A stretch of 40,000 bases of DNA from Salarchaeum sp. JOR-1 (GTDB taxonomy: Archaea; Halobacteriota; Halobacteria; Halobacteriales; Halobacteriaceae), in NCBI RefSeq assembly GCF_007833275.1, contig NZ_CP042241.1, positions 2,303,490-2,343,489 of the forward strand. The letters are read 5' to 3'. Position numbers and translations under genes: made by a program. A model generated the notes under the pieces. It did not search any database. It worked only from the letters and a program-made list of their open reading frames with translations, and was not told the origin of the DNA. This document shows, piece by piece, positions 9,769-39,164 of this stretch (position 1 is its first letter; each line of letters opens with the position of its first letter).

Positions 9769-10634
9769 CCGTGATCACCGTCGATCCGGGAGGCGAGCGC
9801 GTCCTCGATCTCGTGGCGGTGGTTCTCGGACCACCGCTCGTCCTTGTCGTCCATTTTGTTGGTGTTGCTTTTCGCACGGTCGAAGACGCGCCTCAGTTCG
9901 CGCTCCTCGTAGAGCGGGTTGATGAGGTCGCAGTAGACGATGCCCGCACCGAAGTTCCGAGACCCGCCGAGTTGGTGCATAAAATCGGTGTTATGGGCGT
10001 TGAGGAACTCGACGGCCTCGGCCAGCAGCCCGAGGAACTCGGGCTTCGTCTCGCGGAACGAGAGGTGCCAGCAGCCGTCGAGATTCGCTACGGCGTCGAC
10101 CTCGGTGTTCCGGAGCGGCTCGCGGTTGTCTTCCTCGTTCCGGGAGACGACGTTTCGGTTGAGTCGGCGGTAGTGGCCCTCAGCCTGTCCGCGCTCGTAC
10201 TTCACCGAGGAGCGGACGGGCGAGAACTTGATGGGGCGGCGCATCAGTTTGCCGGGGACGCCGCCGAAGCCACCGAACAGGTCGAAGATCACACAGCCGT
10301 CGTCTTCCTTCGGGTCGTCGACGCACGCGCCCTTCTCGTGGTAGCCGTCCTCGAGGTCACGGTCGTACACGTCCTCTTTCCGGAAGTTGGCGTTGGACTC
10401 GCCGGGGTGGCAGGCGGTCGCGCCGCGCTGCTGAACGACGCCCTCCATCCCGTGACGAAGCCAGCCGGAAAGCGGGTAGGCGGGGATGATGCCGCCGATC
10501 TGGTTCTGCGGGTCATCGTCCTCGTAGTTGTCGCTCGATGCGTGGTGCCGGTCGGTCATAATCGAGTCACCTACGACGAGCAGGTCGCACTCGATCCGAA
10601 CGTACACATCCGTGATGTCGGTGATGTCTGTCAT
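9765..10634 (-). CDS. RAMP-superfamily protein, Cas7-like (Csm3/Cmr4-like), HRAMP-type
   Basis: IPAYPLSGWLRHGME corresponds to the Cas7 IPxSSxKGxLR motif. CVIFDLFGGFGG corresponds to the C..C.LFG motif. HQLGGSRNFGAGIV is a C-terminal G-rich loop. Confidence 0.72.
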   Translation of the reverse strand: MTDITDITDVYVRIECDLLVVGDSIMTDRHHASSDNYEDDDPQNQIGGIIPAYPLSGWLRHGMEGVVQQRGATACHPGESNANFRKEDVYDRDLEDGYHEKGACVDDPKEDDGCVIFDLFGGFGGVPGKLMRRPIKFSPVRSSVKYERGQAEGHYRRLNRNVVSRNEEDNREPLRNTEVDAVANLDGCWHLSFRETKPEFLGLLAEAVEFLNAHNTDFMHQLGGSRNFGAGIVYCDLINPLYEERELRRVFDRAKSNTNKMDDKDERWSENHRHEIEDALASRIDGDHG

Positions 10635-10664
10635 AGTGTGTTGCTGTCTTGATGTACGGCGTGG

Positions 10665-10799
10665 TCAGCGTGCGGAGAGGGCGGCGTGGAGTTCGTCTAC
10701 GCTGCCGACGGTAATGTCGCCCACTTTATACACCTTCTTCGTTTGACCATTCTCGTCCCGGTAGATGCGAGCCGTCACGCGGGAATCACTCGTCGGCAT
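10665..10799 (-). CDS. Possible 44-aa small protein (MPTSDSRVTARIYRDENGQTKKVYKVGDITVGSVDELHAALSAR)
   Basis: Hand-translated; it falls below the ORF-track cutoff. Its ATG overlaps the end of the upstream gene by 14 nt. It ends 30 nt before the Cas7-like start. Confidence 0.3.
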   Translation of the reverse strand: MPTSDSRVTARIYRDENGQTKKVYKVGDITVGSVDELHAALSAR

Positions 10800-11190
10800 C
10801 ATCCACCTCGCGTCGACGGTCAAGTTCCTCAGCAGCTTGGAACAGTATGGTAGCCAGTTCGCGGGCTTCGTCGGTCGTGAGACCGGTCAACTGTCCGGCT
10901 CGCACGTTACCGTCGCCCTTGGCCTCAATCTCCAGCGACACACCCTCAGTCCAGTACGTCACCTGAGCAAGCCGCTCGGTGAAATCGTCGTCGTTGAACG
11001 TGAGCCGACCGTACTCACCGTCGGCGCTGGCCGTCACTTCATCTGGTGTGATTTCACCGGTCACGTAGAGACTGGTGCCGAGCGGCTCCCAGTTTTCGAC
11101 ATTCTGGATGTCGTAGTCCTCATTCTCCCAGCGAGACGCTGCGAGCGCAGCGACGCCGCCGAGGTACTGACGACGGGTTAGGTCAGTCAT
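10786..11190 (-). CDS. Small Tat-signal secreted acidic protein
   Basis: The internal ATG at 11190 gives MTDLTRRQYLGGVAALAAS, a twin-arginine signal. It is a paralogue of the next gene (shared ...GL..DEARELA... pattern). It overlaps the upstream gene by 8 nt. Confidence 0.65.
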   Translation of the reverse strand: MTDLTRRQYLGGVAALAASRWENEDYDIQNVENWEPLGTSLYVTGEITPDEVTASADGEYGRLTFNDDDFTERLAQVTYWTEGVSLEIEAKGDGNVRAGQLTGLTTDEARELATILFQAAEELDRRREVDDADE

Positions 11191-11548
11191 CGAATTCTCC
11201 CTCCGCTGCATCGGTGGCGACCACCAGCCGGGCGGCAAGGTCGCGGGCGTCGTCGGGGTCGAGGCCGGTGCCGACCTTGATGGGGCCGGACATCCACCGG
11301 AGTCCGACGCCGCTCCAGCCGCCCTCTTCGTGAACGCCTTCAACTTCGAGCGGGCCACCATTCATCTCCGCGGTGACGTGGACGTTGTTGAGGTCTCCGG
11401 GGACGGAACCGCAGTCCGTCAGCGAGTGCGTCCCGTCGTCGGTGACACTCCGGTCTTCCACGATTTCCTCGGGAGCGGGCGTGTCGCCAGCCGCCGCCTG
11501 CGGGAGCGTAGCGAGCGCGGCGGCGGCGAGGAACTGACGGCGCTGCAT
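11183..11548 (-). CDS. Small Tat-signal secreted acidic protein (paralogue)
   Basis: The internal ATG at 11548 gives MQRRQFLAAAALATLPQAAAG. The ORF-track extension upstream is implausible. Confidence 0.65.
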   Translation of the reverse strand: MQRRQFLAAAALATLPQAAAGDTPAPEEIVEDRSVTDDGTHSLTDCGSVPGDLNNVHVTAEMNGGPLEVEGVHEEGGWSGVGLRWMSGPIKVGTGLDPDDARDLAARLVVATDAAEGEFDD

Positions 11549-30435: not shown

Positions 30436-31131
30436 TTATGTCTCGGTATAGTCCGGCCGCTTCGCGTAATCGATGGGATCACGCTCGCCGAGATTTTGGA
30501 ACGCCTGAAGGCGGAACGCACACGCGTCGCAGGTACCGCAAGCCGGTTCTTCCTCCCGGTAGCAGCTCCACGTGTGTTCGTAGGGGACGTCGAGTTCGAG
30601 CCCTCGTTCGGCGATGTCGGTCTTCGACCACTCGTCGAACGGAGCTTCGATACTGATCTCCGTCTCGGGTTTCGTGCCGACGTCAACGACCTGCTGGAAC
30701 GCCTCGAAGAACTCGGGGCGGCAGTCAGGATATCCCGAGAAGTCCTCGGTATGGGCGCCGATGAACACCGCATCGCACTCCTTGGCTTCCGCGTACGAGG
30801 TCGCCATGGAGAGGAGGTTGGCGTTCCGGAACGGAACGTAGGAGGACGGAATCTCGTCGCCTTCCAAATCCGCGTCTTCGACCTCCATCTCGTCGTCGGT
30901 GAGACTCGAGGATCCAATCTTCGAGAGGTGATCCGTCGTGAGGTGGAGGAAGTCCGCGGCGTCGAAGGCTTCGGCCTGCGCCTTCGCGCATTCCAACTCC
31001 TTGCTCTCGGTCTGCTGGCCGTACGACGTGTGGAGCAGGTATAGGTCGTAGCCGGCGTCCTGAGCGACTGCGGCAGCAGTTGCGCTGTCCATCCCACCCG
31101 ACGCCAGGACGACCGCCCGCGGACGGCTCAT
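30436..31131 (-). CDS. queC: 7-cyano-7-deazaguanine (preQ0) synthase QueC
   Basis: The PP-loop is LASGGMDS. The C-terminal zinc site reads WSCY...CGTCDACAFR. Confidence 0.93.
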   Translation of the reverse strand: MSRPRAVVLASGGMDSATAAAVAQDAGYDLYLLHTSYGQQTESKELECAKAQAEAFDAADFLHLTTDHLSKIGSSSLTDDEMEVEDADLEGDEIPSSYVPFRNANLLSMATSYAEAKECDAVFIGAHTEDFSGYPDCRPEFFEAFQQVVDVGTKPETEISIEAPFDEWSKTDIAERGLELDVPYEHTWSCYREEEPACGTCDACAFRLQAFQNLGERDPIDYAKRPDYTET

Positions 31132-31736
31132 AGGTCTTCCTCCCGGACAATCGCGTCGCGGAACTGTTCTCGTTCCTCCTCAGTCAGATCTCCGACGGAG
31201 GCCCTCGTGGTGGTCGTACTTTCCGTCTCTACGCCGCGCATCGCCTCGCAGAGGTGTGTCGCGTTGACCTCGACGAGTACCGCGGGAGCATCTATCTCAT
31301 CGGCGAGTCCAGAGGCGATGTCGTTCGTCAGCCGTTCCTGCATCGTTAGCTGTCGTGTCTGCCAGCGGACGTACCGCGTGAGTTTCGACAGGCCGACGAC
31401 TTCTCCGTCCGGTCGGTATGCGACGTGGGCCGTCCCGAAGAACGGCAGCAGGTGGTGTTCGCACAGGGAGTAAATCGGGATATCCGTCTTGACGACGAGG
31501 TCGTCGGTCTGGGCGTCGAACGTTCGCATCGTCGGCTTCGATGCTTCCCGCTGGCCCTCTGTGAGGGTCCTAAAGGTCTCGGGAACGCGACGCTGCCACG
31601 TCTCGGTGAGCCCATGGCGCTCGGGATCTTCCCCCACCGCTTCTAACAGGAGGCGGACGCCGCGCTGTGCTTTCTCGTAGTCGATGTCTCTCTCGCTGCC
31701 AGTCTGCTGCTTCAGTTCGGAATGTGAGTTCGTCAT
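31128..31736 (-). CDS. folE: GTP cyclohydrolase I (FolE type)
   Basis: 202 aa from ATG 31736. Diagnostic segments are SLCEHHLLPFFGTAHVAY and VVGLSKLTR. The ORF-track extension to 32189 overlaps queE out of frame. Confidence 0.9.
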   Translation of the reverse strand: MTNSHSELKQQTGSERDIDYEKAQRGVRLLLEAVGEDPERHGLTETWQRRVPETFRTLTEGQREASKPTMRTFDAQTDDLVVKTDIPIYSLCEHHLLPFFGTAHVAYRPDGEVVGLSKLTRYVRWQTRQLTMQERLTNDIASGLADEIDAPAVLVEVNATHLCEAMRGVETESTTTTRASVGDLTEEEREQFRDAIVREEDL

Positions 31737-31737
31737 G

Positions 31738-32511
31738 CTACGTACCAGGAGCGTCGTTCCAGAGATCCACATGCAGTCGCGGAGTGTATCGATAGCCGTG
31801 CTCCATCGCCAGTTCCGCGACCTCGATTCGCTTTTTGTCGAGTTCCTCGCGGGTCGTACCCTCCGGCATGAGGAGGACATCCGAGTCGGGAACACGACTA
31901 GATGCTGTACTTCGAATGTCTTCGACCAGATCCTCGATTTCGGGCATGTCATCGGGACCGGTAACGACGAATTTGAGTTGGGTGTCGTACTCGTCAACAA
32001 GTTCTCCGAGGGCGTCGAGATCGATCCGACGGTCGTCGTGGCGCTCGGCCCACTCGCCGTTACCTTTCGGATCTTTGTCCGGCGTCGGGGCGCTCGATGC
32101 GAGTTTCGGGCTGATGCTCGCCAAGTCGATGGGTACGTCTCGATAGATAGTTCCGTTCGTCTCCACGGTCGTGTGGTAGCCGCGGTCATCGAGACGCTCT
32201 AGGAGCGAGACCGCCTCGTCGTGGATGAGTGGCTCACCTCCCGTCAGGACGACGTGCTCGGCGTTCTCGTGTGACTCAACCTCCGCAACGATGTCGTCGA
32301 GACTCATGTTGGCGTGGGTGGGCTCCCACGAGGTGTGGTAGGAATCACAGAACCAACACCGGAGGTTACAACCACTCGTCCGAACGAACACCGACGGTTC
32401 CCCTGTGAGTTTCCCCTCGCCTTGGAGTGAGTAGAAGAGTTCGTTGATCGGGAGCGTCTCTCCGTCGGCGTTTGGAGTCTTCCCCTGATCGGGGGTCGAA
32501 TTCACTGGCAT
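31738..32511 (-). CDS. queE: 7-carboxy-7-deazaguanine synthase QueE (radical SAM)
   Basis: FYSLQGEG and the cluster motif CNLRCWFCD are present. Confidence 0.92.
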   Translation of the reverse strand: MPVNSTPDQGKTPNADGETLPINELFYSLQGEGKLTGEPSVFVRTSGCNLRCWFCDSYHTSWEPTHANMSLDDIVAEVESHENAEHVVLTGGEPLIHDEAVSLLERLDDRGYHTTVETNGTIYRDVPIDLASISPKLASSAPTPDKDPKGNGEWAERHDDRRIDLDALGELVDEYDTQLKFVVTGPDDMPEIEDLVEDIRSTASSRVPDSDVLLMPEGTTREELDKKRIEVAELAMEHGYRYTPRLHVDLWNDAPGT

Positions 32512-32972
32512 TACTGAGTAGCTCCCGCACAGAGTTCTGAGGTCTCTCTGACTCGAGCTGAGACATCCGATACCGAGTCCGGAAGTGCTGCGAGGAGTTT
32601 GCGCTCCAAGACGACACTCATCACCTCCGCCGTAGGTGGATAATCTAGTACGACGACCCCGTCACCTTCGCCGCTCTGCTCGAATGCGTCAATCAAGGGA
32701 TCGCCTTCCTCGAGGAGAAATCGATGATCCCACTCAGATATTATTGAAGTAATATCTCCTTTGTCCACTATCCACCCGTCTTCGGAGAGTGTCCCCGTGA
32801 CTTTGACTGATACCTGATAATTGTGACCGTGCGGACGACTGCACTTTCCGTCGTGATGTAGGATGCGATGCCCTGTGCTGATTCTAATCGGACGGTCCTC
32901 GCCCACGTATAGTGTTCGCTCACCTGCTTCGGCGAGTTGGGGCGAGGACTCCTGTTCTAAGGACATGGACAC
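32511..32972 (-). CDS. queD: 6-carboxy-5,6,7,8-tetrahydropterin synthase QueD
   Basis: The PTPS-fold motifs HRILHHDGKCSRPHGHNY are present. The start is GTG 32972 or ATG 32966. It overlaps queE as TAATG. Confidence 0.9.
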   Translation of the reverse strand: MSMSLEQESSPQLAEAGERTLYVGEDRPIRISTGHRILHHDGKCSRPHGHNYQVSVKVTGTLSEDGWIVDKGDITSIISEWDHRFLLEEGDPLIDAFEQSGEGDGVVVLDYPPTAEVMSVVLERKLLAALPDSVSDVSARVRETSELCAGATQ

Positions 32973-33090: not shown

Positions 33091-35994
33091 ATGAGGTTCT
33101 ACGTTCCTGAGTGGGATGATGCGGTCGATGCGAACTACGATTTCGAGCATGACGAACTCTCCACCCTCGACCGTCAGGAGCGCGAGCTCAACTACATCTG
33201 GGACATCTTCGACCGCGAGACAACGCCTATCGACGGAGTGCTTATTTCCCGTGAACAGGTAGAGGAGACTAAAAAGAAGGCGGAGCGCCTGGCTCAATAC
33301 GGCGTCTACGATGACCCCGTTCTCTCAGTTCCGGACTGGCTTCCGACTATCAGTGACTGCGGAGCTTGGGGGTACAAATCGCTCCCCTTCCCGCCCTATG
33401 GAAACGAGGAGATGCTCGATTTCTACGAGACTTTGGAGGTCTCCGTAGGGGTCACGATCGATCATCTCGTGCTCGGGTCTGGTAAGGACAAGGGACGCCT
33501 CTACCTCGATGAACGGGCCTTCGGAGACGGGTTCGAAGAGAGCGACATTCCCGACGCTCTCGAAGATGTCGTTGACCTGATGATCGACGAATGGCCTGAC
33601 GAGTGGCCTGAGTACGTTGACGAATACGAGCCCTCTATTCAAGCTGAAGATGGCTCAAGCGTGGAGCCCTTTAGTTCCGGCACTTTCCGTGGCGATATCG
33701 ATGCCGTTCTAACTGAGTTGGAACACGATCCGCGTGCCGTCTATCGGGCCGACGACAAAACGTTCCGCTACAATCTCACCCTCCGCAATGCCCGGGAAAT
33801 GTACGAGTTGTACCAGGCCGAGGATCGCCCCTTCCGTCTCATGGTGGCGATTCAAGGCTGGGATCCCGAATCATATGTCGAAGCCGCTGAGGAGGTACTC
33901 GACATCGGGTACGGCTACCTCGGCATCGGGGGCGTTGCGGGGAGTCCAGTCCACGAAGTGAGGAAGATCGTTAAGGACGTCGGGAAGACCATCAAGGCGT
34001 TCGAACGTGAGCACAACAGACGGGTCGATTCTCACGTTTTTGGTTTTGCGAAGTCTGAGGCGTTCGAAACCATCGGTCGTTCCGGAATGTCGAGTTTCGA
34101 CAGTGCGAGTATGTTGCGTTCAGCCTGGACTGGAGGCGAGAACTACCGCCTAAATAACGACAAACGATACGACGCTATTCGAGTACGGTATCCGTCCAAC
34201 GGTGACGACCTCCGAGAGGCCGTCGAAAAGTCACTCCGAGGTAGGGAGGTTCTCGTTTCCTTACGCGCCTATGACGCAGAGAACTCGATTGAGGAGGAAA
34301 TCTGGAACTGGCACCGGAAAGCTGAGGAGGTGCTTCCTGCGACCCGTGATTATCTGCGCGACCAACGGCACGACGAGCGGTATAACGCGTCCAGGTTACA
34401 GGACATCGAGACAGCATTCCGGGATGATTTCGAGTACGCCAGGGAGCTTCAAGCCTCCTTCAGCGACGACCTGCGAGGGCGGATCGTTAAACTCCTTCGT
34501 GAGGACACCGCCGAGGACCCGATACCCTTCGTGGAGTATGATGAACTGCTCACGGTAGCGGAAGAAGAATTTGAGAAATTCCCGCGGATGCCGGCGGCTT
34601 TCAATAGTCAGGAGCACCAGAACCCCTACGACCACGTCTGGACTGCCGTCCGGGACTATGCCGAGTGGATTGGAGACGATGGTCTATTGGAGGAGTACCG
34701 AGATACCCTGAGGGACCGACCGTGGGAGAAGTGCGAGTGTCCCATCTGCGAGACGAACGGGATCGAGGTCTGCATCTTCCGCGGCAACGACCGAAACCGG
34801 CGTCGCGGCTTCCACAATACCCGCCGCTTCTACGACGAGTTCGCCGCGGAACTCCCAAAACTGCTCGTCGCTGTCGAGGGAACTGCCAAACTGAGCCGCT
34901 TCGAGTCGATCGAAGAGTACCTCCGAAGCGAACACCCCGACTTCTGGGAGCGCGTACACGACCTGCCGGTCGCGGAGGTCGGCGTCATCGACGCGGGGGG
35001 AGTTCACGAATCGTGGTCTGGAACGCCGTCTACTGTCTCCTTCTCGCCAGATAGGGTGGAGGAGAATTTAGCGGCACAAACAGCACGCTATCAAAAGTTG
35101 TTCCTCCTCACGACCGGCGGGGAAGCGAGCGACGCCATTTCCGGAGCCGTTGAGCAGAGTGGTTGCGAACTCCACACGTTTAGTGAGTCCGAAGCCCTAC
35201 GAGAAGGGGCACTTGATGCGTGTGGTCGAAACTACGTCGCCGGTGATGATTTCGTTCCTCATCCTCCCGAGCTCGATGTCCGTGAGGGGTTGGATGTCCT
35301 CGTCATCGACCAGTGTTCCGGTTCCAAAGATATCCCAGAGGGGGCTCCCGTCTTCGATGCAGATGAGACGCTGGAATTTTCGAAGGAAGACCTGCTGAGT
35401 CGAGACAACGTTCCTGGAATTGCCGCGCGGGATCTCTATACTGGCCGACAACAGGGATTCGTGAAGGACGCTGCACGCCGGTTACGTAGTCAGGGTCACG
35501 ACGTTGAGCGATACTTCATAAGTGCTGGGTTCGGACTCGTGACCGAGGAGGAATTGCTCCCTCCCTACGAGGTGACGTTCAGTTCGATGAACGTCGGAGA
35601 AATAAGAGAGCGGTCTCGCCTCCTCGGAATCCAAGAGGACCTGAGAAAAGTATTGCACGAGACAGACTACGATGTCGTCTTCTTCACTCTCGGGAGCGAT
35701 TACTACACGAGCATCGATATTGACGAGATGGTTCAGCAAGTCCGTCCGGACCGTATCGGAGTGGTGTTCAACCGTGAACTAGTCGGTGATCAATTCGAGA
35801 ACATTGTGTCGGTCCCCGCCCGAACGGAAGATGCGAAGAACCACGGTACAATCGTCGTAGGGCTGAAAGGACTCTATATGAAGAATTTCGCCCAACGTCT
35901 TGAGAATGTAGATATGTTGGAACCGGATAATATCGAGTACCTTTGCCGGCACGTAGAAGACGGCCCGACTCAGGCGGCTTTCGAGAAGTTTTAG
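33091..35994 (+). CDS. DpdA-like (TGT-superfamily) transglycosylase fused to a C-terminal domain of about 330 aa of unknown function
   Basis: The N-terminal MRFYVPEWDDAVDANYDFEHD resembles the start of bacterial DpdA. TGT-fold hallmarks are present: LGIGGVAG, FGFAK...MSSFDSAS. The zinc motif is CECPICE...FHN. The C-terminal part has VLVIDQCSGSK, LYTGRQQ, ISAGFGLV and PPYEVTF. Confidence 0.8.
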   Translation: MRFYVPEWDDAVDANYDFEHDELSTLDRQERELNYIWDIFDRETTPIDGVLISREQVEETKKKAERLAQYGVYDDPVLSVPDWLPTISDCGAWGYKSLPFPPYGNEEMLDFYETLEVSVGVTIDHLVLGSGKDKGRLYLDERAFGDGFEESDIPDALEDVVDLMIDEWPDEWPEYVDEYEPSIQAEDGSSVEPFSSGTFRGDIDAVLTELEHDPRAVYRADDKTFRYNLTLRNAREMYELYQAEDRPFRLMVAIQGWDPESYVEAAEEVLDIGYGYLGIGGVAGSPVHEVRKIVKDVGKTIKAFEREHNRRVDSHVFGFAKSEAFETIGRSGMSSFDSASMLRSAWTGGENYRLNNDKRYDAIRVRYPSNGDDLREAVEKSLRGREVLVSLRAYDAENSIEEEIWNWHRKAEEVLPATRDYLRDQRHDERYNASRLQDIETAFRDDFEYARELQASFSDDLRGRIVKLLREDTAEDPIPFVEYDELLTVAEEEFEKFPRMPAAFNSQEHQNPYDHVWTAVRDYAEWIGDDGLLEEYRDTLRDRPWEKCECPICETNGIEVCIFRGNDRNRRRGFHNTRRFYDEFAAELPKLLVAVEGTAKLSRFESIEEYLRSEHPDFWERVHDLPVAEVGVIDAGGVHESWSGTPSTVSFSPDRVEENLAAQTARYQKLFLLTTGGEASDAISGAVEQSGCELHTFSESEALREGALDACGRNYVAGDDFVPHPPELDVREGLDVLVIDQCSGSKDIPEGAPVFDADETLEFSKEDLLSRDNVPGIAARDLYTGRQQGFVKDAARRLRSQGHDVERYFISAGFGLVTEEELLPPYEVTFSSMNVGEIRERSRLLGIQEDLRKVLHETDYDVVFFTLGSDYYTSIDIDEMVQQVRPDRIGVVFNRELVGDQFENIVSVPARTEDAKNHGTIVVGLKGLYMKNFAQRLENVDMLEPDNIEYLCRHVEDGPTQAAFEKF

Positions 35995-36081: not shown

Positions 36082-37116
36082 ATGTTGTACAGACGACGGA
36101 AACTCGACCTCCCGCATGGGAAGGTGCAAACCCCAGTGCTATTCCCTGTCCGCAATATCGGGAAGCGGTCGAGTGACAATACGCCGGCGTACGTCGGCAC
36201 TATCCCGGACTTCTCGACAGCGATGATTAACGCTCGTTCGATCCGGAACCGGGAACCAATGTGGAACAGGCTAACCAACGGAGTCACGTTACGGGAAGAG
36301 ATGGATGTCCCAGAGGACACGATAGTCTTCGCCGATAGCGGGGGGTTCGATTTCACCGCCGAGGAGATCGACACTACCCCAGCAGAAACTCTCGATACCC
36401 AGGCCCAACTGGGAGCGGATATATACGGAACTGTCGATGTCCCCCTTTCGAGAGAGAACCGCGCAGCGGAAAATCAACGTCGTATCGACCAGAGCGTCGA
36501 ATACGCTCTCGAGGCAAGTGATCGCCACACGGGAGACGCGTTGCTCTTCGCAAGCGTGCACGGGTATGATCCCGAGACCATCCGGAACAGCATCCAGCAT
36601 CTAGAAAAGAATGGGGATTTCGATGGATACGCTCTCGGAAGTATGGTCCCCATCCGAACCGACTACAAAAAGGTAACCAAACTAGTACTTTCGGCGAGAC
36701 AGGCTACAGACAAGCACTTGCACGTGTATGGTCTCGGCGGCATCGTCTACCAACCGCTCCTGCTGTACCTCGGTGTCGATAGCTTCGATTCCTCGGCGTT
36801 CATCCGAAGTGCGGGCAATCGGAACTATTTGATTCCCGGATTCGGTGGCGAACCGCTACGGAACATTGAGTCGTTAGATAGACTCCCCTGCCCGTGCCCT
36901 GTGTGTGGACAGCGGGAACTAGACGAGATCCGTGAGGACCGGACCGCTCTCACCAAACACAACCTCTGGGCTCTGGCGATTGAACTCAGGCGATTCCGGT
37001 ACGTCGTCGAAGCGGGACGGGACGTTGAGGAGTATCTCGACCTCCGGTTCCAGGGGAACGAGGTGACGCGACGGGCATACGAAACCGCCAAGCAGCAAGT
37101 GCGGAGGCTCACATGA
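36082..37116 (+). CDS. Compact TGT-family transglycosylase (no PUA domain), DpdA-like
   Basis: 344 aa. Diagnostic segments are FADSGGFDF, YALGSMVP and VYGLGGIVYQPLLLYLGVDSFDSSAFIRSA. The zinc motif is CPCPVCG followed by ...KHN. Confidence 0.85.
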   Translation: MLYRRRKLDLPHGKVQTPVLFPVRNIGKRSSDNTPAYVGTIPDFSTAMINARSIRNREPMWNRLTNGVTLREEMDVPEDTIVFADSGGFDFTAEEIDTTPAETLDTQAQLGADIYGTVDVPLSRENRAAENQRRIDQSVEYALEASDRHTGDALLFASVHGYDPETIRNSIQHLEKNGDFDGYALGSMVPIRTDYKKVTKLVLSARQATDKHLHVYGLGGIVYQPLLLYLGVDSFDSSAFIRSAGNRNYLIPGFGGEPLRNIESLDRLPCPCPVCGQRELDEIREDRTALTKHNLWALAIELRRFRYVVEAGRDVEEYLDLRFQGNEVTRRAYETAKQQVRRLT

Positions 37117-38009
37117 CCGAAGAGAGGGCCACAATCCGACCAGTCAACCTAAGCCGCTTGGTGGAACTCACCCACGTATGCGAAGAGGGAACCAAATCCA
37201 CGGAGGAAGTCGAGGTTGCCCTCGACGTCAGCCACAAACGTGCGCGAGAGGCCATCCTCGAAGCAGAACGTGTCTCGCTATTGTCTGAGAAGGGTGACGA
37301 AGAGGAGTCCGTTTACGAGACCACTGATATTGGAGAGTCGTTTTTAGAGGCTGTCCGAGAGGAGGACTGGGAACGCGCTAGTTCCATCCTTGCCACCCAC
37401 AGTCCTCACTACAAGTCGTTCATCGAGACTTTAGACGAGGATGGGCAGGGCAGTTTAGATGCCCTATTGGAACGACTTGAAGATACCCAAGAGTTCACCC
37501 CGTACTCGTTCAACCAGACCGGGATTGAGGTCGTCGGTGACTGGGCGGAGCGTCTGGGACGCGTCCAACGCAACGCATTCTCCGGAAGTTACTACCTGAC
37601 GGACCGTTCTGAAGTGCCGCCGAACTTCCACTTCGTGTTGCTCGAAGTTTACGACGACCTCGAACAGACTGCGGGGGTGGACTTGCGTCAACGGTATCTG
37701 TCGATTCCGAGACTCCGCGAAGAAGTATGCGAACGGCTCGGTTGTACCCGCGATAACTTCGACGACGCCTTGCTCGCGGTATGTCAGCAAAACGTAGGTA
37801 AACTCGAACTCTCGGGCGCCCCTCTGGACTCAGCAGCAAAGGACGCCGCTCTCGGCATCAAGCAGATGAAACGGTCCGATGAAGACGGGCTCGTGACGAC
37901 ATCCCAGTCCACACAGCAGGTAATGAACGGAGTGGAACTGTACGACAAACAATACTACTATCTCGCGGTGTACGACCGCGACATCACGTTCGATACGGAG
38001 GCTTCCTAG
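37113..38009 (+). CDS. Hypothetical protein with a probable N-terminal winged helix
   Basis: 298 aa. It has an ATGA overlap with the TGT-like gene, and its stop abuts the next ATG. The N-terminal LSRLVELTHVCEEGTKSTEEVEVALDVSHKRAREAI is HTH-like. Confidence 0.7.
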   Translation: MTEERATIRPVNLSRLVELTHVCEEGTKSTEEVEVALDVSHKRAREAILEAERVSLLSEKGDEEESVYETTDIGESFLEAVREEDWERASSILATHSPHYKSFIETLDEDGQGSLDALLERLEDTQEFTPYSFNQTGIEVVGDWAERLGRVQRNAFSGSYYLTDRSEVPPNFHFVLLEVYDDLEQTAGVDLRQRYLSIPRLREEVCERLGCTRDNFDDALLAVCQQNVGKLELSGAPLDSAAKDAALGIKQMKRSDEDGLVTTSQSTQQVMNGVELYDKQYYYLAVYDRDITFDTEAS

Positions 38010-39164
38010 ATGTCCAACGCATTCACGATTAGTGACGAACAGCAAGACTACTCACAATACGACCTAAACGCGAATCCGTTCCCGTACAGCCCGGTTCCGA
38101 ACGAGAATCCCGAAATCTACTGCGGGCAGCAACACGTCTCCGACAAGATCAGTTCGACGGTATCATCGATGCTCGCCACTGGGAAGTCCAAGCACCTCGT
38201 GGTGACTGGGAAGTACGGAAACGGGAAGTCACACACGCTCAAATACACGCGCTCCTTGCTACGAGACCGGGAAGATGTCGTCGTCGGATACGTGGCGCAA
38301 CCCGGCGATGGATTCCTCGACATCTACCACGAGTTCGTGTACGATCTTGGATTCAACCGGATTCAGGAGTTAGCCTACGAGTACCTCGCCTCGGTTACCC
38401 GCGACGTCACGGACACCAATCCGATGGGTGCAGAATCGATGGAGTCACTCATCGACGAAGGAGATGTCCTGTTATCCGATATCGTACCAGAAGCCATCCG
38501 AAGACTCAGCGACGTCACCAAGTTCGCCGACTTCGCCAGGGCGATCGTCCATATGGTCTACGAGGACACGAACCTCTACGCCTGGCAGTGGCTGACTGCG
38601 GAGGGGATCCGGTACGAACAGCGTAAGGAGATGGAGATTCACAGCGCCCTCGACGACGACACGATGGGGGTTCGAGCGTTCACTGCCTTCAAGAACATGC
38701 TGTTGGACCTCGGGTACACCGGCGTGTTCGTGTTCGTAGACGAGTTCGAGAGCATCGCACGACTCACCCCGAAGAACGAACAGGCGACACTCAACAGCAT
38801 CCGGCACCTGATGGATCAGAACAGCTCAGGCCTTTGCATCTTGTTCGGTTGCGCTCCAGAAGTGTGGCAGGACGTTATGAGCGAATATCACGCTTTCAGC
38901 GAGCGAATTGGACAGGAGGTTTCGTTACGTCCGTTAACCAGCGAACATCTCTACGAACTGGTCGAGAACTACCTCGATAAGGAACGGCCATCAACTGTCG
39001 AGAGTCGCATCCGGCCATTCACCGAGGAGAGCCTCGATTTGATTCTCCAGCGGTCACAAGGAAACGTACGTCAAGTTCTGGCTCTATGTAGCCGTATATT
39101 GGACGATGCGGCAAACGAAAACCGTCAAGAAATCACTGTAGATTTCGTAGAAGAGGCGATTTAA
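38010..39164 (+). CDS. AAA+ ATPase (Orc/Cdc6-clade-like, without a winged-helix domain)
   Basis: Walker A is GKYGNGKSH. Walker B is VFVFVDEFES. The sensor-2-like segment is GNVRQVLALCSRILDDA. Confidence 0.8.
   Translation: MSNAFTISDEQQDYSQYDLNANPFPYSPVPNENPEIYCGQQHVSDKISSTVSSMLATGKSKHLVVTGKYGNGKSHTLKYTRSLLRDREDVVVGYVAQPGDGFLDIYHEFVYDLGFNRIQELAYEYLASVTRDVTDTNPMGAESMESLIDEGDVLLSDIVPEAIRRLSDVTKFADFARAIVHMVYEDTNLYAWQWLTAEGIRYEQRKEMEIHSALDDDTMGVRAFTAFKNMLLDLGYTGVFVFVDEFESIARLTPKNEQATLNSIRHLMDQNSSGLCILFGCAPEVWQDVMSEYHAFSERIGQEVSLRPLTSEHLYELVENYLDKERPSTVESRIRPFTEESLDLILQRSQGNVRQVLALCSRILDDAANENRQEITVDFVEEAI

Follow-up and report, generated by a model that had tools for sequence, protein, structure and literature searches.

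A DUF6884 domain obligately linked to the long DpdA of Halobacteria, a candidate DpdC-type module

In the bacterial Dpd systems, DpdC turns preQ0-DNA into dADG-DNA independently of DpdA and DpdB (PMC10164549), and it has been placed in the DUF6884 / YaaA-like DUF328 group of proteins (bioRxiv 10.1101/2025.02.24.639861; PMC5699537). DUF6884 itself is described by the Pfam curators as having the CxxxK and LSAxxG motifs and a distant kinship to the DNA-binding protein YaaA (PMC11701544). In halophilic archaea, the BRIGADE systems, which Bell et al. define by their YprA helicases, reside in islands that combine 7-deazaguanine biosynthesis genes with Dpd-like and ARMADA-like restriction genes (bioRxiv 10.1101/2025.09.15.676423); no mention of DpdA, DpdC or DUF6884 was found in the text and supplements of that preprint. 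The present analysis concerns a 40,000-nucleotide stretch of the genome of the haloarchaeon Salarchaeum sp. JOR-1 (contig NZ_CP042241.1, positions 2,303,490 to 2,343,489 of the forward strand), hereafter the window. It was found that a single open reading frame (ORF) of this window (positions 33091-35994, + strand) encodes a 967-residue protein in which a DUF6884 domain follows a long DpdA. In every sampled Halobacteria genome with a long DpdA, such a domain is either fused to it or encoded directly downstream. In the literature on cellular archaeal 7-deazaguanine DNA, DUF6884 and DpdA/DpdC fusions, I found no description of an archaeal DpdA-DUF6884 protein. The DUF6884 label is already in the public annotation of many such proteins, several homologues being named 'DUF6884 domain-containing protein' by NCBI. 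The arrangement is a variant of the known Dpd system, common but so far undescribed, and is otherwise an expected extension of it.

Architecture of the 967-residue protein

The DUF6884/DpdC-like domain comprises residues 735-967 (35293-35991, + strand). The Pfam DUF6884 model (PF21818, gathering score 30 bits) covers residues 778-876 with an E-value of 6.8e-7. With the full 967-residue sequence the model scores 29.9 bits, slightly short of the cut-off; with residues 730-967 alone it scores 32.9 bits, and a six-frame genome search, in which this copy is the only one, gives 33.8 bits. A precomputed match to PF21818.4 is present on almost all homologues. The domain contains, in this order, the motifs VLVIDQCSGSK (residues 736-746, nucleotides 35296-35328), LYTGRQQ (residues 782-788, nucleotides 35434-35454), YFISAGFGLV (residues 808-817, nucleotides 35512-35541), and PPYEVTF (residues 824-830, nucleotides 35560-35580). 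In the consensus form these correspond to CxxxK (C742 and K746), LYxG (782-785), SAGxG (811-815), and PYxxTF (825-830), and they are followed by GxxYY (868-872) and LKG (925-927). A first-pass annotation, made from the sequence alone, had listed the same four motifs in the same order and had likened them to a DUF6884-type pattern. All four motifs were located between residues 736 and 830, and the Pfam scores on the isolated domain and in the six-frame search bear this likeness out. The same annotation had drawn one C-terminal domain of about 330 residues from residue ~640 onwards (35010-35994). That region is too large and is not a single domain; the fused module has about 233 residues (nucleotides 35293-35991). 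The module is assigned to residues 735-967 because the stand-alone homologues, the alignments with split genes, and the full-length model all place the boundary there.

The two DUF6884 hallmarks, C742-SGS-K746 and I810-SAGFG815 in this protein, are invariant in 58 domain homologues, 54 full-length homologues, and 94 distant relatives. Residues C742, K746, Y783, G785, S811-A812-G813, G815, Y826, and F830 are invariant in the 58 domain homologues and the 54 full-length homologues. Near-invariant in the 94 distant relatives are C742, K746, A779, Y783, G785, S811, A812, G813, G815, Y826, F830, G868, Y871, K926, and G927.

The AlphaFold2 model of residues 730-967, built with 57 homologues, has a predicted local distance difference test score (pLDDT) of 93 and a predicted template-modelling score (pTM) of 0.90. 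Its only significant neighbour in the PDB is YaaA (5CAJ; Foldseek E 1.5e-5, probability 1.0, template-modelling (TM) scores 0.47/0.43). Escherichia coli YaaA, a DUF328 (PF03883) protein, has the DNA-binding 'cantaloupe' fold in common with the domain, but the sequence identity is 11%, the TM-score is about 0.45, and YaaA has no link to 7-deazaguanine. Pfam YaaA/DUF328 (PF03883) gave no match at E <= 0.01 on either the whole protein or the domain. The domain is related to YaaA at the fold level only. Among the viral models of BFVD, the domain matches phage proteins that carry a DUF6884 or YaaA label. The first-pass annotation had left room for a poorly conserved or disordered region and for a fold foreign to nucleotide or DNA chemistry. 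The region proved to be conserved (52-77% identity) and well folded (pLDDT 93), and the one protein that it matches by fold in the PDB binds DNA.

The catalytic part of DpdA, a DNA guanine/preQ0 transglycosylase, occupies residues 1-589 (33091-34857, + strand). This part matches the NCBIfam DpdA model NF041059 with 275 bits (cut-off 200) and the PADLOC DpdA model with 245 bits, and the DpdA crystal structure 7UI4 is the sole strong PDB match of the full-length AlphaFold2 model (Foldseek, E 2.8e-15). It carries the ISDCG (D89) and FDSAS (D337) signatures and a zinc site of the CxCxxC...H type (C548/C550/C553/H575), which is N-terminal to all four motifs of the DUF6884 region. D89, D337, and the zinc-site residues are invariant across the 54 full-length homologues, and the signature residues agree with those of Enterobacter DpdA.

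Between the two parts lies an extra small alpha/beta domain (residues 590-714; 34858-35232, + strand), modelled as a separate domain with a pLDDT of about 80-93. It has no Pfam match and no PDB sequence match, and a PDB sequence search with residues 590-967 returned nothing meaningful. The split DpdA proteins of 732-735 residues end in the same domain, which is part of the DpdA half and lies outside the fused module; bacterial DpdA proteins, of about 410 residues, lack such an extension. A flexible acidic linker follows (residues 715-734; 35233-35292, + strand). It has low pLDDT in the full-length model (below 50 at residues 715-724) and coincides with the gene boundary of the split forms.

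Relation to DpdC and to other DUF6884 proteins

The PADLOC DpdC model PDLC02815 matches residues 736-843 of the haloarchaeal protein over model positions 7-114 of 312 (E 1.1e-7). The gene that precedes dpdA-dpdB on plasmid pPOL9A of Enterobacter cloacae scores 470 bits on the PADLOC DpdC model, and its full frame contains LITTCTNGK, DLYKGGHW, ILSAGLGLL, and VVPYKATF, that is, the same four motifs. An alignment of 26 members of the DpdC family (318-residue proteins), about half of which have a precomputed DUF6884 match, was seeded with this pPOL9A protein. When the domain family was compared with this DpdC family by hhalign, the probability was 97.6% (E 2.8e-12) over 140 columns, domain residues 4-149 being aligned with DpdC residues 1-172. 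DpdC also has most of the residues that are near-invariant in the 94 distant relatives. Among the roles proposed in the first-pass annotation, a DpdC-like one is thus supported by the PADLOC and hhalign matches together with the published placement of DpdC in DUF6884/DUF328.

The pPOL9A dpdC gene (locus L005, 4941-5918) is annotated as a hypothetical protein of 283 residues whose annotated start removes the CxxxK motif; a length of 318 residues is usual in its relatives. An IS5/IS26 pair lies immediately upstream of it.

In sequence, the likeness to DpdC of Salmonella Montevideo and the Enterobacterales Dpd systems is confined to the N-terminal portions of the proteins. Both belong to the DUF6884 family, have a YaaA-like fold and homologous N-terminal portions of about 145 residues, and share CxxxK, LYxG, SAGxG, PYxxTF, and GSxxY; both are encoded with dpdA and preQ0 genes. 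In contrast, DpdC is a free protein of 318 residues, whereas the haloarchaeal module forms the C-terminus of DpdA or the product of the next gene, has a shorter C-terminal subdomain unrelated in sequence to that of DpdC, comes without DpdB, belongs to an archaeal host, and has an activity that is predicted. As judged from these alignments, the domain falls short of strict orthology with DpdC, since the alignment with DpdC stops at residue 172 of DpdC and residue 149 of the domain and the C-terminal subdomains differ. No true DpdC was found among ten cluster representatives of 270-410 residues near the domain; in all ten, the matches to the DpdC models were limited to model positions 1 to ~115.

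Bacillus subtilis YfjM and other Pfam DUF6884 proteins share with the domain the hidden Markov model (HMM) match, the CxxxK and LSAxxG motifs, a YaaA-related predicted fold, and both stand-alone and fused occurrence. Unlike the YfjM-type proteins, the haloarchaeal clade is obligately linked to DpdA and has the extra conserved C-terminal elements GxxYY and LKG. The PADLOC candidate-defence model PDLC04712 (PDC-M57A), which is DUF6884-like, matches residues 778-875 (E 3e-5) and also most relatives of the domain. As PDC-M57A is DUF6884-like, DUF6884 proteins may occur in other defence contexts too.

DUF6884 domains are joined to DpdA outside Halobacteria as well. The Nostoc sp. NIES-3756 plasmid pNOS3756_2 encodes a 714-residue protein annotated as DpdA, in which the DUF6884 part comes first and DpdA second (locus L006, 5077-7218); over 214 residues, its DUF6884 part and the haloarchaeal domain share 30% identity (E 2e-23). 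The two domains are the same, a second tRNA-guanine transglycosylase (TGT) paralogue is nearby, and the annotation of the 13-kb stretch covered includes no dpdB, but the order is reversed, DpdA is of bacterial size, the neighbours are DEAD/DEAH helicases, and the origin in the tree is independent. The order DUF6884 then TGT/DpdA was also found in four cluster representatives (P0149, P0156, P0160, and P0193), and the order TGT then DUF6884 in one (P0130). Since the fusions fall in different parts of the tree, the sequences indicate that DpdA/TGT and DUF6884 were joined on at least three occasions, and in either order. In other relatives, DUF6884 is joined to unrelated domains without family identification; thus, the module is mobile and not exclusive to DpdA. 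As for the Nostoc plasmid, which is conjugative, its short second TGT paralogue (10311-11255 of the same locus) and two DEAD/DEAH helicases mirror the two-TGT layout of the haloarchaeal locus.

Fused and split forms in Halobacteria and their genomic island

When 1.84 billion cluster representatives were searched with residues 640-967, 540 relatives were found. The stand-alone ones have about 235 residues and align from query residue ~97 (residue ~736 of the protein) to the end. Full-length homologues of about 967 residues form about 97 clusters at 90% identity in many haloarchaeal genera, with a C-terminal identity of 52-77%; among the carriers with names are Haloferax gibbonsii ATCC 33959, Natrinema pallidum, and strains of Halobacterium salinarum. 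In Halorussus halophilus and in Halococcus, a DUF6884 gene for 234-235 residues starts 2 nucleotides after a gene for 733-735 residues, and the upstream product corresponds to residues 1-723 of the fused protein (54-56% identity). The same split layout, with ORFs of 732 and 238 residues, was found in a further genome (G304).

How general is this linkage? I surveyed 401 evenly sampled Halobacteria species genomes with a threshold of E <= 1e-20 for the DpdA part. A match was found in 53 genomes, one of them (G155) weak and partial (79 bits), leaving 52 with a long DpdA. All 52 have the DUF6884 module, 32 in the same open frame and 20 directly downstream on the same strand. Where the first-pass annotation had considered a fusion unique to this genome, arising from a lost stop codon, the fusion turned out to be widespread. 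The haloarchaeal sequences linked to DpdA group as one clade in a tree of 139 domain sequences (Shimodaira-Hasegawa-like approximate likelihood ratio test support 98). Nested there within the diversity of split forms is a clade of the fused forms (100), and the orphan, DpdA-independent DUF6884 paralogues make up a separate clade. One sampled genome (G147) has a fused ORF of 1008 residues whose DUF6884 part is closest to split-type sequences; its BLAST neighbours, on which this placement is based, suggest a second fusion event.

Some fused homologues are 130-200 residues longer (P0071, 1159 residues; P0017, 1099 residues; P0058, 1175 residues). The extra residues in such homologues (~1100-1175 residues) are acidic loop insertions near residues 180-192 or residue 492, or a C-terminal tail. 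Inteins were considered and rejected, as the extras have neither intein boundaries nor Pfam matches.

More distant stand-alone DUF6884 paralogues of about 240-260 residues, with the same invariant motifs, were found in 15 further sampled Halobacteria genomes (135-172 bits). Two of their neighbourhoods were scanned (locus L007, 9910-10683, - strand; locus L008, 9633-10355, + strand) and have no shared context. The L008 paralogue adjoins a HamA and DEAD-box helicase pair resembling Hachiman.

In the window, the preQ0 pathway genes queD, queE, folE, and queC (30436-32972, - strand) are divergently transcribed from the dpdA-DUF6884 gene. They were assigned by Pfam/NCBIfam matches to PTPS/QueD, radical SAM QueE, GTP cyclohydrolase I, and QueC. 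Downstream of the fused gene (36082-39164, + strand) are a second TGT paralogue of 344 residues (Pfam TGT, 104.7 bits), a 298-residue protein without a family match, and a BrxD-like AAA ATPase of 384 residues (38010-39164; Pfam BrxC_BrxD, 62.7 bits). In Halorussus and Halococcus, this trio also comes after the gene or genes of both the fused and the split forms. The island context matches that of the BRIGADE systems, which are confined to Halobacteria.

The window's genome, which is 99.98% complete, has no DndB/DpdB-type protein (PF14072). The first-pass annotation had also suggested that the C-terminal domain might be the ATP-dependent helper, a DpdB-like role. This suggestion found no support: the 967-residue protein lacks a Walker A motif and gave no match to a DndB/ParB-type, DpdB, or nucleoside triphosphatase (NTPase) family, and DUF6884 is not an NTPase family. 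A DpdB-like ATPase identity of the domain was therefore rejected. The obvious candidate for an ATP-dependent step, and a better one than the DUF6884 domain, is the BrxD-like AAA ATPase.

Possible function of the tethered domain

It is proposed, with a probability of roughly 0.55, that the module is a DpdC-type domain tethered to the long archaeal DpdA and converts the preQ0 inserted in DNA, most likely to the amide dADG. The products of the adjacent folE, queD, queE, and queC genes would make preQ0, and DpdA would exchange guanine in DNA for it. The tethered domain would then bind the same DNA, flip the modified base into a predicted pocket lined by Cys742/Lys746, Tyr783, Ser811, and Tyr826, and convert the 7-cyano group; as with DpdC, the amide formed by hydration would be the most likely product. 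By analogy with QueF chemistry, the cysteine might serve as a nucleophile attacking the nitrile. Such a protein would carry out both reactions in one chain, as an 'insert-and-convert' enzyme, and would write the self-mark of a defence island of the Dpd/BRIGADE type. The 32 fused and 20 split genomes, together with the reversed fusions of bacteria, amount to Rosetta-stone evidence that DUF6884 acts with DpdA on the same DNA. Catalysis fits better than mere tethering, because the putative active-site residues are invariant in fused, split, and distant members.

Several observations count against this proposal. About 90 C-terminal residues of the domain and about 145 last residues of DpdC have no alignment to each other, and the HMM of the haloarchaeal clade gives canonical DpdC 18.7 bits compared with about 160 bits for the DpdA-independent haloarchaeal paralogues. 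Of the 15 genomes carrying such paralogues, five were searched for DpdA and none has it; the occurrence of paralogues without DpdA implies that DUF6884 chemistry is not confined to preQ0-DNA. I found no DNA-modification measurement in the literature for archaea with a dpdA-DUF6884 gene. As to the mechanism, DpdC, to my knowledge, has no published structure or catalytic mechanism and is the least understood 7-deazaguanine DNA-modification enzyme.

The main rival to DpdC-type catalysis is that the domain is a DNA-binding or base-flipping accessory, non-catalytic or lesion-handling, which replaces DpdB and performs no preQ0 chemistry. The absence of a DndB/DpdB-type protein from the nearly complete genome is in line with such a role, as are the occurrence of the family in genomes without DpdA, the DNA-binding nature of YaaA, the only solved relative, and the reported interaction of the DUF6884 member YfjM with abasic and RNA-base lesions (PMC11701544). 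However, DpdB works by ATP hydrolysis and the reconstituted bacterial system inserts preQ0 without needing DpdC (PMC10164549), while the domain has no Walker A or NTPase match and the conserved downstream BrxD-like ATPase is better suited to the ATP-dependent step. Moreover, the Cys/Lys/Tyr/Ser set is invariant even in very distant members, which points to chemistry. I regard the accessory role as improbable.

Somewhat less probable still is that the domain is catalytic on the inserted 7-deazaguanine but forms a product other than dADG, such as the carboxylate dCDG by full hydrolysis of the nitrile, or an adduct, the clade having diverged from DpdC. The different C-terminal subdomain would agree with this, and so would the substitutions flanking the motifs (DQCSGSK and LYTGRQQ in the haloarchaeal domain, TTCTNGK and LYKGGHW in DpdC); further chemistry is also hinted at by the operon's second TGT/ArcS-like paralogue. 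On the other hand, the domain and DpdC have identical core motifs, no extra cofactor- or donor-binding domain was detected, and hydration to the amide is the only documented activity of the family. An artefactual fusion (lost stop codon or assembly error) or a functionless decaying domain, for which no supporting point was found, has a negligible probability given the about 97 clusters of homologues with 52-77% C-terminal identity, the same open frame in 32 of the 401 sampled genomes, the invariant motifs, and the confident fold.

Returning to the DpdC-type module, the invariant residues C742, K746, Y783, S811, and Y826 offer targets for mutation and a handle on the mechanism of DpdC. A bolder version of the proposal is unlikely: a DpdB-independent, self-sufficient fused enzyme would put dADG, or a derivative new to DNA, into haloarchaeal chromosomes, and its Cys-Lys pocket would define the DpdC/DUF6884 mechanism. 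No measurement of a 7-deazaguanine mark in haloarchaeal chromosomal DNA was found in the literature. From the distribution of the gene, a 7-deazaguanine derivative is predicted in the chromosomal DNA of about one in eight of the haloarchaeal species sampled, and this without a detected DpdB, where the DpdB/DndB search covered the window's own genome alone and the island of one relative gave a faint DndB match. If the bolder version proves true, it would provide the first 7-deazaguanine mark in cellular archaeal DNA.

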